A program made the position numbers and the translations under genes. Source: Candidatus Heimdallarchaeota archaeon (lineage in GTDB: Archaea; Asgardarchaeota; Wukongarchaeia; Wukongarchaeales; JBHIFL01). Taken from it: a stretch of DNA of 12,239 nucleotides. The stretch spans positions 1 to 12,239 of the forward strand of contig JBHIFL010000103.1 of NCBI GenBank assembly GCA_046761065.1, written 5' to 3'. The notes under the pieces were generated by a model. The model was not told the origin of the DNA. It worked only from the letters and a program-made list of their open reading frames with translations, and did not search any database. Position 1 is the stretch's first letter; every line of letters begins with the position of its first letter. Shown in pieces: positions 5,823 to 12,140 of this stretch.

Positions 5823-6926
5823 TTAGACCTCTTGGGTAGGAGGGGATTTTATCGTACGATTAATAGCAACCTCAGCAATATCTGCTGCATAATCTGCTAC
5901 TCTTTCGACTTTGTCTGCAAGAGTTCGTAACATACAATAGACTTCATACGTTTCTGCAAGCATTTTTAAGCCCTTTTCACTTTTTTTCGGATCTCCAATT
6001 GTATTTTTAGCTTCTCCGATTCTCTTCTGGGAGTCTCTGCCTATTTCACGTAGAAGATCTCGAGTTAATTCCTTGCGAATTCGATATCTATTGTTTATCG
6101 TATCATTTACCATATTGATTTTCTTATATGATAAGCCTTCAACCGCTCGGCAATAGATTTCATAGACTTGCTTAAGATAAGAAGTGATGAGTTGGATGAG
6201 GTCGTTAGGCGCTTTATAATAATGAAGGGCCGCAATGGATTCTGCAATCGTTTTTGCATGATCCGCAATATGTTCTATTCGTCTTAGAACAGAATGGTAG
6301 CTAAGAACATCGACCAAATCGATTCCTAGCTCCTTCATGGTAATTGGATTTTGAAGGGCAAATTGAAGTTGTTTTAAAATTAAAAAATAGAACTGATTAA
6401 CATCATCATCCATCTTTACGATGGATTTTGCAAGATCTATATCGAAGGTTTCTAATGCTCGGATTGCATCTCCAAGCATGGAAGCGGTTATCGAGTGTGC
6501 CCTGTTCAGACTTTTTTCCAGATTCAGATCAGAGATATTAACAATACTTTGAATTCGAACCATTTTTGAGCTTGTTTCAATAATTTGCAAGCCAACTAGT
6601 TCTTTTAAGCGGGCGCGTAACTCTTCTTGTTGGTCTGATGTAAAATCCTCGGTCGAACAGATTTCGATTTCCGGGAAATTGCTTAAATAGGCAGCTATAA
6701 GCTGGCGTTCGACCAAACCTTTATCTGCGGTAGGAGGGACTGTGATAGTAATCTTAGAAGCCTTATCACGTTTGGTATCGTGGGGATAGATTCCAAGAGA
6801 GCCATCTCCACGAGTTTCAAATACGAGTTCATCCCCTTTGGTGAGTTCGTATTGATCTGCCCATCCTTTGGGCAGAGAAACTACTAAGGAACTTCGTCCA
6901 AGCTGCATAACTTTACGGACTTTCAT
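5823..6926 (-). CDS. phoU: Archaeal-type phosphate uptake regulator: N-terminal AbrB/MazE-like DNA-binding domain fused to tandem PhoU domains
   Basis: N-terminal RKVMQLGRSSLVVSLPKGW...LTKGDEL; IAAYL; LVGLQIIE; MDDDVNQFYFL; PhoU repeat motifs IEHIADHA and VERVADYAADIAE. Confidence 0.9.
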   Translation of the reverse strand: MKVRKVMQLGRSSLVVSLPKGWADQYELTKGDELVFETRGDGSLGIYPHDTKRDKASKITITVPPTADKGLVERQLIAAYLSNFPEIEICSTEDFTSDQQEELRARLKELVGLQIIETSSKMVRIQSIVNISDLNLEKSLNRAHSITASMLGDAIRALETFDIDLAKSIVKMDDDVNQFYFLILKQLQFALQNPITMKELGIDLVDVLSYHSVLRRIEHIADHAKTIAESIAALHYYKAPNDLIQLITSYLKQVYEIYCRAVEGLSYKKINMVNDTINNRYRIRKELTRDLLREIGRDSQKRIGEAKNTIGDPKKSEKGLKMLAETYEVYCMLRTLADKVERVADYAADIAEVAINRTIKSPPTQEV

Positions 6927-7560: not shown

Positions 7561-8916
7561 ATGAATAAAATAGATGCATTTATTGAAAATAGCAAAGAAC
7601 GATTTATCACCGAGTTGTTTGGCTTTTTACGACAACCGAGTATTAGTACCCAACAGATTGGAGTCCCAAATTGTGCTCAACTTCTCAAAAACGAAATGAT
7701 GAGAGTAGGAATCACTACCACGATCTTTGAAACCGTCCAGAATCCAATAATTTTTGGTGAGATGATTAGTACATTATCTAAAAAGACCTTACTTTTGTAT
7801 GGACACTATGATGTTCAACCTCCTGAGCCCTTAGAACTCTGGAAGTCCCCTCCCTTTGATCCAGTAATCCGAGAAGGCCGAATTTACGCGCGTGGAAGTT
7901 CAGATGATAAAGGACAACTTTTTACGGCTGTAAAAGCGATTGAAGCCCTCCTGAAGACATTAGGTGAACTCCCATGTAATGTTAAGTTGTTATTTGAGGG
8001 GGAAGAAGAAATTGGCAGCCCAAACCTCGAACCATTCATCATCGAGCACAAGGACCTCCTGAAAGCAGATGCGAATATAGGGCTTGATGGCAGCATACAT
8101 GAGACAGGACGACCTCAACTCATCTTAGGCCTTAAAGGGATGGCAGAGGCAACAATCCGGGTGAGAACTGCCAATCGAGATCTCCACTCGGGACGTGCAG
8201 CTGCGGTGCCCAGCGCGTCTTGGAAACTCGTGTGGCTACTCAATAAATTAAAGGGAGACGATAATCGAGTGCAAGTTGAAGGCTTCTACGACGATATCCG
8301 GGAGCCACTTCAGGAGGAACTTGAGGCCTTAAACAAGATTCCCGTGGATACAAAGGATCTTTTGGAGTTTTTAAACCTACACGAATTCATTGATGGAGTA
8401 GTCGATCTCAAATTCCTTCGAAAGCTGTTGTTTGATCCCACATTCAACATCCAAGGCATCCAAAGTGGTTATACTCTTGAGGGTTATAAGACAGTCCTTC
8501 CAGCAGAAGCTTTTGTCAAACTAGACATTCGGCTTGTGCCCGATCAGGACCCTGATGATATCCTTAACAAACTCGCAGCGTTTATCAAAAACATAAATGA
8601 TCCGGATATTACCCTTGAAGAGAATAGAGGAGCGAATTTGTATCCCTCAAGAACACCAATCACGGATCCCTTTGTAAAAATTGTCCGGAATTCAACGGAA
8701 GCTGTCTACCAAACATCACCAATCATTTTACCGAGCATTGCAGGTTCCGGTCCGGATTATGTGTTTACACGAATTCTTGGCCTCCCAAGTATTTGGGTCC
8801 CATGCGCACCTTTCGATTCAAACAACCATGCTCCAAACGAGAACATAACCATCCAAGGATTTATCACTGGAATAAGAACCGTTGCAAGAATTATGCAAGA
8901 TTTTGCCCAATCCTAA
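7561..8916 (+). CDS. M20/M25/M40 family metallo-hydrolase, dipeptidase-like (CNDP/Dug1-like), canonical di-metal site
   Basis: YGHYDVQP (H82), ARGSSDDKG (D115), EGEEEIGS (E149/E150), GLDGS (D176), DLHSG, DIRLVPDQDP and NHAPNE (H423). All five metal ligands and the catalytic Glu are present. Confidence 0.95.
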   Translation: MNKIDAFIENSKERFITELFGFLRQPSISTQQIGVPNCAQLLKNEMMRVGITTTIFETVQNPIIFGEMISTLSKKTLLLYGHYDVQPPEPLELWKSPPFDPVIREGRIYARGSSDDKGQLFTAVKAIEALLKTLGELPCNVKLLFEGEEEIGSPNLEPFIIEHKDLLKADANIGLDGSIHETGRPQLILGLKGMAEATIRVRTANRDLHSGRAAAVPSASWKLVWLLNKLKGDDNRVQVEGFYDDIREPLQEELEALNKIPVDTKDLLEFLNLHEFIDGVVDLKFLRKLLFDPTFNIQGIQSGYTLEGYKTVLPAEAFVKLDIRLVPDQDPDDILNKLAAFIKNINDPDITLEENRGANLYPSRTPITDPFVKIVRNSTEAVYQTSPIILPSIAGSGPDYVFTRILGLPSIWVPCAPFDSNNHAPNENITIQGFITGIRTVARIMQDFAQS

Positions 8917-9292
8917 CCACAATAATCGATTAAATTCGTTTATTGCTCAATCTTAATAGCCAATATTGCTTACAATACTAATGGGATTGTAAAAGCAATC
9001 ATAACCGAAGTTGGCAATAACCCTTTCTGAAAAGAAATCCATGATTTTTTGGTAAACACGGTTGATAAAGTCATTTTGAATTATAGTCTAAATAAAGACT
9101 GAAATAAAACTCGTTAACACAGTGGAACATATGTGCCTTGTAGTTTGATTATAAATAGGGTGAAGCATTCTTCTAAGACAATATACTTGTTGCAAATGAT
9201 CGTAATGGGATCAATAGCGTGCTGGTTTCTCAATATTCTCCACCATTTGGTCTAACATGGTCGAATCCATCCTTGCACTTCCGAGGGATAGA

Positions 9293-9342
9293 TTGGTAAA
9301 GAGGGTCTTAGAGTTTCTTGGCAAAGAGGGTCTTAGAGTTTT
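9293..9342 (+). repeat. Tandem direct repeat, 2 x 25 bp
   Basis: TTGGTAAAGAGGGTCTTAGAGTTTC (9293-9317) and TTGGCAAAGAGGGTCTTAGAGTTTT (9318-9342); 23/25 identical, no spacer. Confidence 0.95.
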
Positions 9343-9510
9343 TGATATCAGTTTTAACCCTTGTACCATAAGACAAATTCCTCTTTTTTGAGGTTATTTT
9401 GAAAAACTTTTCATGAATCATCTCTGACTGCGCCGCGTCACGGTGATGAAAGACTATAAAGAATAATGAGAGTTATTCAAGAGGTCTTGCGTTCTTCACA
9501 TGGTAAGTCA

Positions 9511-9557
9511 AAAGGTTTATCTGTTTACTCCTACCACCCTTCAGAATGAAGGAAGTG
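9511..9557 (+). promoter_or_regulatory. Putative BRE/TATA promoter and ribosome-binding site of the second M20 gene
   Basis: AAAAGG-TTTATCTG at 9511-9524; SD-like AGGAAGTG at 9550-9557, 7 nt before ATG 9565. Confidence 0.5.
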
Positions 9558-9564
9558 TTACCCC

Positions 9565-10977
9565 ATGGATCTTGCCAAAATCCATGCAAAGATCGATGAA
9601 CAGTTTATAACACACCTGGAAAAGATTCAGAATTATTTACGTATTAAATCCATCAGCGCGACGGGTGAAGGGATGGAGGAAACGGCAACAGCCACAGTAA
9701 AAGTTCTTGAGGAATTAGATGCCACAGAAGTTCATTTAGCAGAGACAACAGGTTACCCTGTTGTTTATGGTGAACGGATCATAGACCTCAGCAAAAAAAC
9801 ACTCCTTTTATATTCAATGTATGATGTACAACCAGTGGAAGCGGAGAAGTGGATGGTTGATCCTTTCGCAGGAGCCATCGTGGAGGAGTTTGAGGATCTC
9901 GGTCAGTGTCTTGTCAGTCGTGGAGTAATCAACACAAAAGGCCCCACCATGGCATTTTTTAATGCGCTAAAAATGATAATTGAAGTAGAAGGTGACCTTC
10001 CCTGCAATCTAATCTTTGCGATTGAAGGGGAGGAAGAGCTCGGATCCCTCCATTTTCCGGAATTTGTTAGCAAGTATTCTGAACAATTGAAACGTGCTGA
10101 TGGGGTTTATTTTCCGTTTTTTGCAGAAAATAAAATTGGAAAAGTGGAGATGTGGCTGGGAGTCCGGGGGATCATCTATTTAAAGTTGCGAGTACAAGGT
10201 GGAGGCTGGGGAGGGCCGAAAACTCGTCATATCCATTCCAGTAGTCACTCTTGGGTGGATTCCCCTGTATGGAAGCTAGTCCATTGTCTCGCAGACATGA
10301 AAGCCCCTGACGGCGTGATAAAGATCCCAGGGTTCTATGAGGATGTGATGCCACCGTCTACAGAGGATGAAGAGTTGCTGACAGAGTTAGCGGAAACTGT
10401 GGATTTTGAAATCATAAAGGACTCGTTAGACATCACTCGATTTCGCGATGATCTGGAAGGCAAAGACCTCCTCCGTCAGTACCTCTTCTCAACCACATTG
10501 AATATTGATGGGTTGGATGCTGGATATACTGGACCGGGAACCAAAACAATTCTTCCTTGTGAGGCAAGAGCGTATGTTGATATCCGTCTTGTACCGAATC
10601 AAGACCCAGAGAAACAGATAGCCCTTGTGAAAGAATTTCTCGCGAAATACCATCCCCTAGTTGAAATGGAGTCATATGATTCTTATCCTTGGGCGAAAGT
10701 AAGCATTCGGGAACCATTATGTCAAGCCTTACTTCGAACATATCAGGCGTTTGGAAAAGAGGTAGAGATATGGCCTCATCTGGGTGGATCGGCTCCTTTT
10801 TATTTGTTTAGTCGTAATTTAGGACTTCCCTTTATTGGAGGGGGTTTAGGTCATGGAGATCGAGCCCACTCGCCTAACGAATACGCAGTTGTAGCCGGAG
10901 ATAAAATTGGTGGAATAAAAGAGTTTGAAAAGTCTGTGGTGACCTTCTTACAGGAATTCAGTCAAACAGAATATTAA
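9565..10977 (+). CDS. M20/M25/M40 family metallo-hydrolase paralog with non-canonical metal site
   Basis: Colinear with the upstream M20 protein (KKTLLLY-SM-YDVQP, EGEEELGS, IHSS, TLNIDG...GYTGPGTKTILP, DIRLVPNQDP, AHSPNE), but with H->M85, D->N123 and D->P184/F185. Confidence 0.93.
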   Translation: MDLAKIHAKIDEQFITHLEKIQNYLRIKSISATGEGMEETATATVKVLEELDATEVHLAETTGYPVVYGERIIDLSKKTLLLYSMYDVQPVEAEKWMVDPFAGAIVEEFEDLGQCLVSRGVINTKGPTMAFFNALKMIIEVEGDLPCNLIFAIEGEEELGSLHFPEFVSKYSEQLKRADGVYFPFFAENKIGKVEMWLGVRGIIYLKLRVQGGGWGGPKTRHIHSSSHSWVDSPVWKLVHCLADMKAPDGVIKIPGFYEDVMPPSTEDEELLTELAETVDFEIIKDSLDITRFRDDLEGKDLLRQYLFSTTLNIDGLDAGYTGPGTKTILPCEARAYVDIRLVPNQDPEKQIALVKEFLAKYHPLVEMESYDSYPWAKVSIREPLCQALLRTYQAFGKEVEIWPHLGGSAPFYLFSRNLGLPFIGGGLGHGDRAHSPNEYAVVAGDKIGGIKEFEKSVVTFLQEFSQTEY

Positions 10978-11175: not shown

Positions 11176-11372
11176 AAAAAATATTTTTCCTCGCGTAAAT
11201 AGGCAACAGCCGATTATACGTCTTCTTTGAACAAATTAAGACCTAAAAAATGGATCAATTAATAACCTTGGTAGAATAACACGATTTGAAAGAGAATCCA
11301 GAATTTGGAAACCTTAAAAGTACTCAAAGATTAAATGTTAATTATTTAGGAGTGCATTATGGCGGATATATA

Positions 11373-12140
11373 ATGATCCCAAAACGTACGATCGGTTCCG
11401 AAGGTCTTGATGAGTTACTTGGGGGAGGCATCCCCGAAGACAGATGCCTTCTTGTAGTTGGCGGCCCAGGAACTGGAAAAACTACTATTGGGGTCCAATT
11501 TCTGCTTGAAGGAGCAGTGATTGGAGAAAATGGACTTCACATCCTTACAGAAGAAAGCCCAGCCGCCATTAATGCCCGCTTTGATTTTTTGCATCAGAGA
11601 GGGAAGGTAGATGCAACGTACAATAATGCATTGAAAACAGGTAAAATAACGATTATAGACCTTCTTTCCGCACGAATCGGCTATCGGGAAAAGTATAACC
11701 TCCCAAACATCATCTGCCCTCCTATTGTTCGTTTGGGGGATATATTGGGAATTATTTATGATGCTGTCCGCGACAACGATATCAAGCGGGTTGTGATTGA
11801 CAGTTTCCAGTCCTTTATAACGATAGCTGAACGAGAGGTAGTGCAACTCCGCGAAGTATTGCTTGCAATCATCGAACCTTATCGTAGGGTGCGAGTCGGA
11901 CTTTTGGTCACTTCTGAACGGCATACAACTAGTCATCTAGTTCCTATATCTATTGAACACGATAGTTATTTGTTTTTAGTACATGTATTTGATGGTGTAA
12001 TTTCGCTAGCCAAAGGGTTAGCCCAAAATCAAAGTATCCGTTCATTGAAAGTTGAAAAGGCGATATGGACAAAGCACGATCTTAGACCATACCGTTTTCG
12101 GATCTCAGAATCTGGAATCGAAGTTTTGGATCCCTTATAA
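11373..12140 (+). CDS. Single-domain KaiC/RAD55/GvpD-family RecA-fold ATPase
   Basis: GSEGLDELLGGGIP, Walker A GGPGTGKT, QFLLEG, TEES, Walker B RVVIDS, LVTSE, FDGVISL and C-terminal H..RPYRFRISESGIEV. ATG 11373 is preferred over the TTG at 11286 because family similarity begins there. Confidence 0.92.
   Translation: MIPKRTIGSEGLDELLGGGIPEDRCLLVVGGPGTGKTTIGVQFLLEGAVIGENGLHILTEESPAAINARFDFLHQRGKVDATYNNALKTGKITIIDLLSARIGYREKYNLPNIICPPIVRLGDILGIIYDAVRDNDIKRVVIDSFQSFITIAEREVVQLREVLLAIIEPYRRVRVGLLVTSERHTTSHLVPISIEHDSYLFLVHVFDGVISLAKGLAQNQSIRSLKVEKAIWTKHDLRPYRFRISESGIEVLDPL

Follow-up and report, generated by a model that had tools for sequence, protein, structure and literature searches.

We found that one of the two M20 genes on a 12,239-nucleotide contig of Candidatus Heimdallarchaeota archaeon (JBHIFL010000103.1; this whole stretch is hereafter called the window) encodes an M20A protein in which the residues of a single metal site are replaced and the remainder of the catalytic apparatus is retained. 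This variant gene (9565..10977, +; 470 amino acids (aa)) belongs to an old and widespread branch of CNDP/Sso-CP2-like M20A proteins that appears to have lost one of its two co-catalytic metal sites. We give about even odds to the reading that the variant is an amidohydrolase with one metal that acts by itself, probably as a homodimer. Textbooks present M20 enzymes as two-metal hydrolases. In their canonical form, five ligands (His, bridging Asp, Glu, Asp/Glu and His) hold two co-catalytic metal ions (PMC11511702, PMC13058870). The residue roles tabulated for M20A further include an Asp that positions this first His, a Glu acting as acid/base, an oxyanion His and a carboxylate Arg, with the active site of each dimer subunit being completed in trans by the His of its partner (PMC13058870).

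The replacements are evident against the other M20A gene of the window (7561..8916, +; 451 aa), which has all five ligands and passes the cut-off of the NCBIfam model PRK06446 (391 vs. 369 bits), and to which the variant is 33% identical from end to end (BLASTP E 5e-67). Where this canonical neighbor displays H82, D84, D115, E149, E150, D176 and H423, the variant has M85, D87, N123, E157, E158, F183/P184 and H435, respectively, so that the ligand differences listed in the initial annotation of this DNA hold up in the translation, in a script check and in structure alignments. In alignments to the solved structures of Sso-CP2 (4mmo), 2pok, CN1, Dug1p and mouse CN2 (2zof), M85 pairs with the HxD His, N123 with the bridging Asp and P184 with the Glu/Asp ligand. 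The column of the fourth ligand shifts with the aligner between P184, F185 and A187, and residues 181–187 (VYFPFFA) are devoid of any acidic residue. Thus, M85 (ATG, 9817-9819) stands in for the His ligand at the start of the former HxD motif (M85-Y86-D87, 9817..9825), N123 of the RGVINTKG motif (AAC, 9931..9933) for the metal-bridging Asp, and F183-P184 (10111..10116) occupy the strand end where canonical enzymes have the Asp/Glu ligand. E158 and H435 (10867-10869) alone are left of the five ligands, the latter being the C-terminal His of the kept site, and E158 is immediately preceded by the general acid/base E157 (10033..10038 for the pair).

The residues predicted to act in trans or on the substrate are likewise retained. 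In CNDP2, the ligand is contacted by Glu166, Arg343 and Ser417 of one subunit and by His228(B) and Thr330(B) of the other (PMC12655758), and the kept residues of the variant align with CNDP2 Glu166/167, His228, Thr330, Arg343, Ser417 and His445. Accordingly placed are H224, the putative trans oxyanion-hole His of M20A dimers (PMC13058870, PMC12655758), which follows a clade-specific W215-G-G-P218 insertion in the lid/dimerization domain (10207..10236); T328 and R341 (10546..10587), which correspond to the trans Thr330 and the carboxylate-binding Arg343; and S409, the equivalent of Ser417, which shares the segment 10789..10869 with H435 and with H430, a residue that is invariant in the clade and Phe in the neighbor. 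All these features lie on the forward strand.

The variant reading frame is open throughout, with no internal stop, and family membership is not in question: both M20 proteins of the window match the Pfam domains Peptidase_M20 and M20_dimer, the variant with 52 bits for PF01546 (cut-off 24.6) and 39.5 bits for PF07687 (cut-off 21). These two domains account for its entire Pfam content over 470 aa, with no WD40 repeats, no fused DNA-binding or signaling domain and no match to the M28 domain PF04389. Among the NCBIfam models, none scores the variant at or above its cut-off; it falls short of both the subfamily model PRK06446 (267 vs. 369 bits) and the dipeptidase equivalog PRK08201 (217 vs. 441 bits). 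A confident AlphaFold2 (AF2) model built from a 30-sequence alignment (predicted local distance difference test score 93.4, predicted template-modeling score 0.91) matches M20A structures with template-modeling scores (TM) of 0.83–0.87, namely Sso-CP2 (0.83), mouse CN2 (0.87), Dug1p (0.87) and human CN1/CN2, followed in rank by DapE, ArgE, CPG2, PahZ2 and 5-nitroanthranilate aminohydrolase.

The residue pattern is fixed across a large clade. We aligned the variant with its 119 nearest clusters (47–87% identity) from a database of 5.8 billion proteins, and in this set of 120 the replaced site is represented by Met85 in 119, Asn123 in 120 and Phe183 in 119 members, whereas position 184 may be Pro, Ala, Gly, Ser or His, with an acidic residue at 184/185 being absent from 118. 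Conservation of the kept residues is equally strict, both for the catalytic set (Glu157 in 119, Glu158 in 120, His435 in 120) and for the substrate-binding and trans set (His224, Thr328 and Ser409 in 120 each, Arg341 in 119). D87, the Asp that normally orients the now missing His, and H430 are invariant, and the positions of the W-G-G-P insertion, which canonical relatives lack, are conserved in 118–120 members. Chance falls far short of explaining this pattern. The clade spans Asgard archaea, Bathyarchaeia, Chloroflexota and Armatimonadota, the named relatives of the variant itself being Promethearchaeota, Hodarchaeota and Bathyarchaeales. Close homologs do not retain the His/Asp/Asp set, and the lesions are hence not private to this genome. 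The gene is not decaying; purifying selection on it is strong, with a ratio of nonsynonymous to synonymous rates of 0.09 against the 83%-identical ortholog of genome G002 (synonymous divergence ~1.2, near saturation). Because the substitutions are both fixed across a large clade and accompanied by such selection, the earlier suggestion that they were selected rather than decayed is upheld.

Nothing in the PDB, in NCBIfam, among the source names or in the literature that we searched supported the concern that this clade might already be known as a regular di-zinc dipeptidase, and none of these yielded a characterized member. Alignment to the PDB recovered no solved structure with the variant signature, and the names of clade members in a protein atlas and source databases are generic M20 only. 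Our literature searches turned up no publication dealing with a Met/Asn clade of M20, and a review of pseudopeptidases does not cover M20 (PMC11266112).

Beyond the immediate clade, the lineage comprises dozens of clusters at 50% identity and more than 500 metagenome matches to two of its motifs. A full HMMER scan over 1.84 billion cluster representatives (E<=1e-30) returned 612 matches, and a census of signatures among full-length representatives from the best 150 of these found 52 with x-N-E-E-H (Met or Leu first), 44 with the canonical H-D-E-E-H, and 38 that are mixed or further degenerated, 28 of which have also lost Glu158 and/or His435. A search of genome contigs with a single protein query recovered four bacterial loci only, all canonical. 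In an IQ-TREE phylogeny (LG+C20) of 60 representatives, 20 canonical rows, including the neighbor from the window, fall on one side of a branch with support of 99, and all variant, intermediate and degenerate rows on the other; a FastTree of 134 rows concurs, with support of 100 for the canonical clade. Since the deepest well-supported branch separates the two M20 genes of the window, the trees identify them as ancient paralogs and not products of recent duplication. The description of the pair as a tandem thus stands insofar as the two genes are co-oriented neighbors; it fails insofar as they are separated by 648 bp and by an ancient divergence.

Several subclades have Leu in place of Met85, which argues for a hydrophobic filler at position 85 rather than a thioether ligand. 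Nested among the Met/Leu-Asn rows are some that have the canonical His/Asp (P0196, P0206), and there is a second set of Met-Asn M20A proteins that lacks the WGGP insertion (P0150, P0171, P0181, P0185, P0192, P0218). Together, these suggest that the His/Asp replacements may have arisen more than once. We also observed nested subclades in which the remaining ligands are gone (P0166, P0177, P0183, P0211, P0233, P0248, P0250 and others); these are candidate metal-free descendants of M20.

Of the two options raised in the initial annotation, namely a mononuclear amidohydrolase and a non-catalytic partner of the upstream enzyme, we favor the former, as yet unproven, given that the general base, the remaining Glu and His ligands, the carboxylate-binding Arg, Ser409, Thr328 and the trans His are all conserved. 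The recurrence of peptide transporters and M24 peptidases among the neighbors also speaks for it, and the one-zinc branch of the sister family M28 provides a precedent (both described below). Met (in some subclades Leu) has taken the place of the His of the HxD motif, Asn that of the bridging Asp and the Phe-Pro strand end that of the Asp/Glu; in this proposal, the former His/Asp metal site would be filled by hydrophobic side chains. The other site would be kept by Glu158 and His435 and probably the carbonyl oxygen of Asn123, giving a putative homodimer with one metal per active site. Glu157 would continue to serve as the general base, His224 and Thr328 would be contributed in trans, and Arg341 and Ser409 would hold the substrate carboxylate. 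As its reaction, we predict cleavage of the amide bond that lies beside a free carboxylate, with small peptides or N-acyl/N-blocked amino acids as substrates. The lost metal is likely the one that, in complexes of aminopeptidases and canonical dipeptidases, holds the free amino group of the substrate; its loss would suggest that the substrates are N-blocked or that the reaction is of the carboxypeptidase type.

Several observations weigh against this proposal. The ligand-less subclades are nested in the same lineage, with Glu158 replaced by I/N/F/W and His435 by G/A, which indicates that the lineage can persist without any metal site and fits binding as well as catalysis. The single zinc of mono-zinc DapE occupies the His/Asp/Glu site, i.e., the very site that is lost in the variant. 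Unlike the one-zinc M28 enzymes, in which the bridging residue is still Asp, the variant has Asn, a poorer ligand, at this position, which weakens the remaining site. Finally, the 20 tightly linked neighbors that were annotated are mutually unrelated (DNA glycosylases, CbiQ, URO-D, FeoB, PHO4 and domains of unknown function), and no pathway or substrate can be inferred from them.

Some of these points favor the view that the variant is a metal-independent pseudoenzyme, with the scaffold binding or sensing a carboxylate-bearing small molecule or peptide that is contacted by the Glu/His residues. The nested subclades without E158 and H435 still keep the "general base" Glu157 (93%), Arg341 (100%), Asp87 (96%) and the GP of the insertion; the invariance of D87 in the absence of the His that it normally orients suggests reuse of the residue, and the Asp-to-Asn change weakens metal binding. 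Against this, E158 and H435 in all 120 members and E157 in 119 members of the window's own clade are the signature of a kept metal/base triad, and the protein has no fused DNA-binding or signaling domain. Gene neighborhoods also point away from regulation: in the ~94 loci that we examined (80 metagenome loci found with the clade motifs, 13 genome contexts and the window), the only recurrent neighbors are components of Opp/Dpp-type ATP-binding cassette (ABC) peptide transporters and M24 peptidases, at ~6 loci each, and no neighbor is conserved. We regard a pseudoenzyme as possible but unlikely. Similarly doubtful is the idea that the M..N..(no Asp) state is a distinct one-metal M20 design that was reached more than once from di-metal ancestors, with a chemistry or substrate class new to M20, and that some of its descendants became metal-free and still use the Glu and the Arg. 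A repeated origin is suggested by the nesting of the canonical rows among Met/Leu-Asn rows; reversion from Met to His needs two to three base changes. Such a course would resemble the transition from aminopeptidase to glutaminyl cyclase.

A one-metal enzyme could also have turned to non-hydrolytic chemistry, such as acyl transfer, cyclization or ligation, as the M28 fold did in glutaminyl cyclase or the GPAA1 peptide synthetase. The site kept in the variant is that of the one-zinc M28 branch (PMC7522609). The pocket also appears to be reshaped, with the conserved WGGP loop beside the trans His and a hydrophobic plug in the lost site, and the fold matches include an M20 enzyme of unusual chemistry, 5-nitroanthranilate aminohydrolase. 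The latter enzyme is mononuclear. However, the carboxylate Arg, the Ser and the trans His/Thr constitute an ordinary dipeptidase set, and the gene context suggests no particular non-hydrolytic pathway, which makes this alternative distinctly unlikely in our estimate.

The other option of the initial annotation, a non-catalytic subunit that forms a lid-domain heterodimer with the upstream canonical M20A and lends it His224/Thr328 in trans, in the manner of Dug1/Dug2, is not supported by the genomic distribution. It would be in keeping with the adjacency and shared orientation of the two genes in the window and with the conservation in the variant of the trans His by which M20A partners complete each other's sites (PMC13058870). 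A second pair also exists in genome G012, where the variant and a canonical M20A are divergently transcribed, 123 bp apart, beside an Opp/Dpp operon. Nevertheless, a canonical M20A lies within 8 kb of the variant in just 4 of the ~94 loci (the window, G012, L044 and L048), and the genes in the window are 648 bp apart. We surveyed 41 genomes of the phylum and found a variant-type gene in 12; seven of these 12 have no canonical M20A (G002, G009, G019, G023, G029, G033, G039), contrary to the co-occurrence expected of an obligate active/inactive pair. They include the genome of the closest ortholog (G002; 83% identical) and a closed genome consisting of a single contig, 97% complete (G023). In five of the seven, the canonical protein as query retrieves the variant gene itself as the best match, followed by distant M20 families only. 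With no canonical M20A to act upon in these seven genomes, the conserved trans residues there have no possible target other than the active site of the variant itself. Moreover, the cis residues E157, E158, H435, R341 and S409 are invariant or nearly so, which would be needless in a mere donor of trans residues; the deepest supported split separates the two genes, and the relatives of the canonical copy outside its own lineage are bacterial, at ~50% identity. The variant is not consistently paired with a canonical copy and is independent of such a partner; accordingly, we consider a partner subunit very unlikely. That the variant is still binuclear, with the Met85 sulfur, Asn123, Asp87, His430 or the like holding a second metal, is also very unlikely, for although D87 and H430 are clade-invariant and Met can ligate soft metals, Met85 gives way to Leu in many subclades, Phe183-Pro184 offer no ligand, and Asn cannot bridge two cations like a carboxylate.

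Beyond the question of pairing, the G012 locus (L028; G012:C2:172000-191999, 9693-19203) has the clearest peptide-uptake context among the loci examined: its divergent pair adjoins a five-gene Opp/Dpp-type ABC operon coding for two ATPases, two permeases and an SBP_bac_5 protein. In the only genome of the same order (L026; G002:C205), the 83% ortholog shares no flanking gene with the window; the variant locus is not syntenic even between close relatives.

The window (~39% guanine plus cytosine) is contig C103 of a genome bin of 4.4 Mb in 234 contigs, 91% complete, and the two M20A genes described here are the only ones in that genome. The stretch is contained in four DNA runs, all from one hydrothermal-vent metagenome study, and these runs are possibly its source; no RNA run is listed as containing it. 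In addition to the M20 pair, it codes for panE- and panB-like genes, a major facilitator superfamily transporter, a LarA-like gene, a PhoU/AbrB regulator and a KaiC-like ATPase, as well as a 149-aa open reading frame (ORF) with no Pfam match (161-610, +). The regulator, in which a DNA-binding domain of the AbrB/MazE type is joined to a PhoU domain (5823-6926, -), flanks the M20 pair on one side, and the single-domain KaiC-like ATPase (11286-12140, +) on the other; neither recurs beside variant genes elsewhere. The spacer between the two M20 genes (8917..9564) harbors no ORF longer than 52 aa and contains a perfect-looking tandem repeat of two 25-bp copies at 9293-9341 (TTGGCAAAGAGGGTCTTAGAGTTTC, 95% match); an Rfam search of the window, the spacer included, gave no match. 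The canonical neighbor has relatives at 74–90% identity, the sole named source among which is a Candidatus Hodarchaeota metagenome-assembled genome (90% identical); together with the named relatives of the variant, this makes an Asgard archaeon the most likely host of the window. Because identity then drops to ~50% and the named relatives at that level are bacterial (Desulfobacteraceae, Microvirga, Firmicutes, Chloroflexota), its phyletic pattern suggests that this gene was acquired from bacteria.

Automatic annotation labels every M20 member either "M20/M25/M40 family metallo-hydrolase" or "ArgE/DapE-like", and a large M20 branch with a conserved one-site signature and no characterized member found is present under these names in Asgard archaea, Bathyarchaeia, Chloroflexota, Armatimonadota and others. 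Characterizing one member would put to the test whether M20 catalysis can proceed with only one metal, at the Glu/His site, and might uncover a substrate class or chemistry that is new. Such work would also correct metabolic inferences that count such genes as ordinary dipeptidases, e.g., those on the peptide degradation capacity of Asgard archaea. The nested ligand-less subclades, in turn, offer a natural series from an enzyme to a possible pseudoenzyme.

Among known systems, the carboxypeptidase Sso-CP2 of Sulfolobus solfataricus (4mmo) is the best sequence match of the variant (E 3.7e-61) and a top fold match (TM 0.83). Common to both are a two-domain M20A layout, the trans His, the Arg, and the motifs EGEEE, KT..P, GGS and HxPNE; Sso-CP2 differs in having all five ligands and no WGGP insertion, whereas the variant has three ligands replaced and the insertion present. 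The highest TM-scores (0.87) are to the CNDP2/CN2 carnosinase-type dipeptidases and yeast Dug1p (2zof, 4ruh, 3dlj, 4g1p). All the substrate contacts of CNDP2 enumerated above have conserved equivalents in the variant; however, CNDP2-type enzymes bind two Mn/Zn ions, both of which are engaged by bestatin (PMC12655758), and the variant is without the site formed by His101/Asp132/Asp195. DapE (3isz, 4o23), which is active in both mono- and di-zinc forms, illustrates that an M20A site can turn over with one metal; it shares with the variant the roles of the general base, trans His and Arg (PMC13058870), but unlike the variant keeps all five ligands. The Dug1p/Dug2p system is comparable in that one organism has two M20 proteins, one of which has a non-standard role. 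At the level of domains, Dug2p features an added N-terminal WD40 domain and the partner Dug3p, whereas the variant is a plain 470-aa M20A, mostly found without a canonical partner. The closest parallel to the pattern of loss comes from the sister family M28 of clan MH, whose cyclotransferase/GPAA1 branch has a single zinc, held by ligand sites 2, 3 and 5; the aminopeptidases have another zinc besides, at sites 1, 2 and 4 (PMC7522609). The same site has been kept, and the same site lost, in this one-zinc branch (glutaminyl cyclase, GPAA1) and in the variant, and the loss was accompanied by a change of chemistry in M28 (PMC7522609). Glutaminyl cyclase has Asp at sites 2 and 4 and lacks a lid/dimerization domain, whereas in the variant site 2 is Asn, site 4 is gone, and sites 3 and 5 are kept. 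We hence use the likeness to one-zinc M28 enzymes as a working analogy and not as a statement of family membership.

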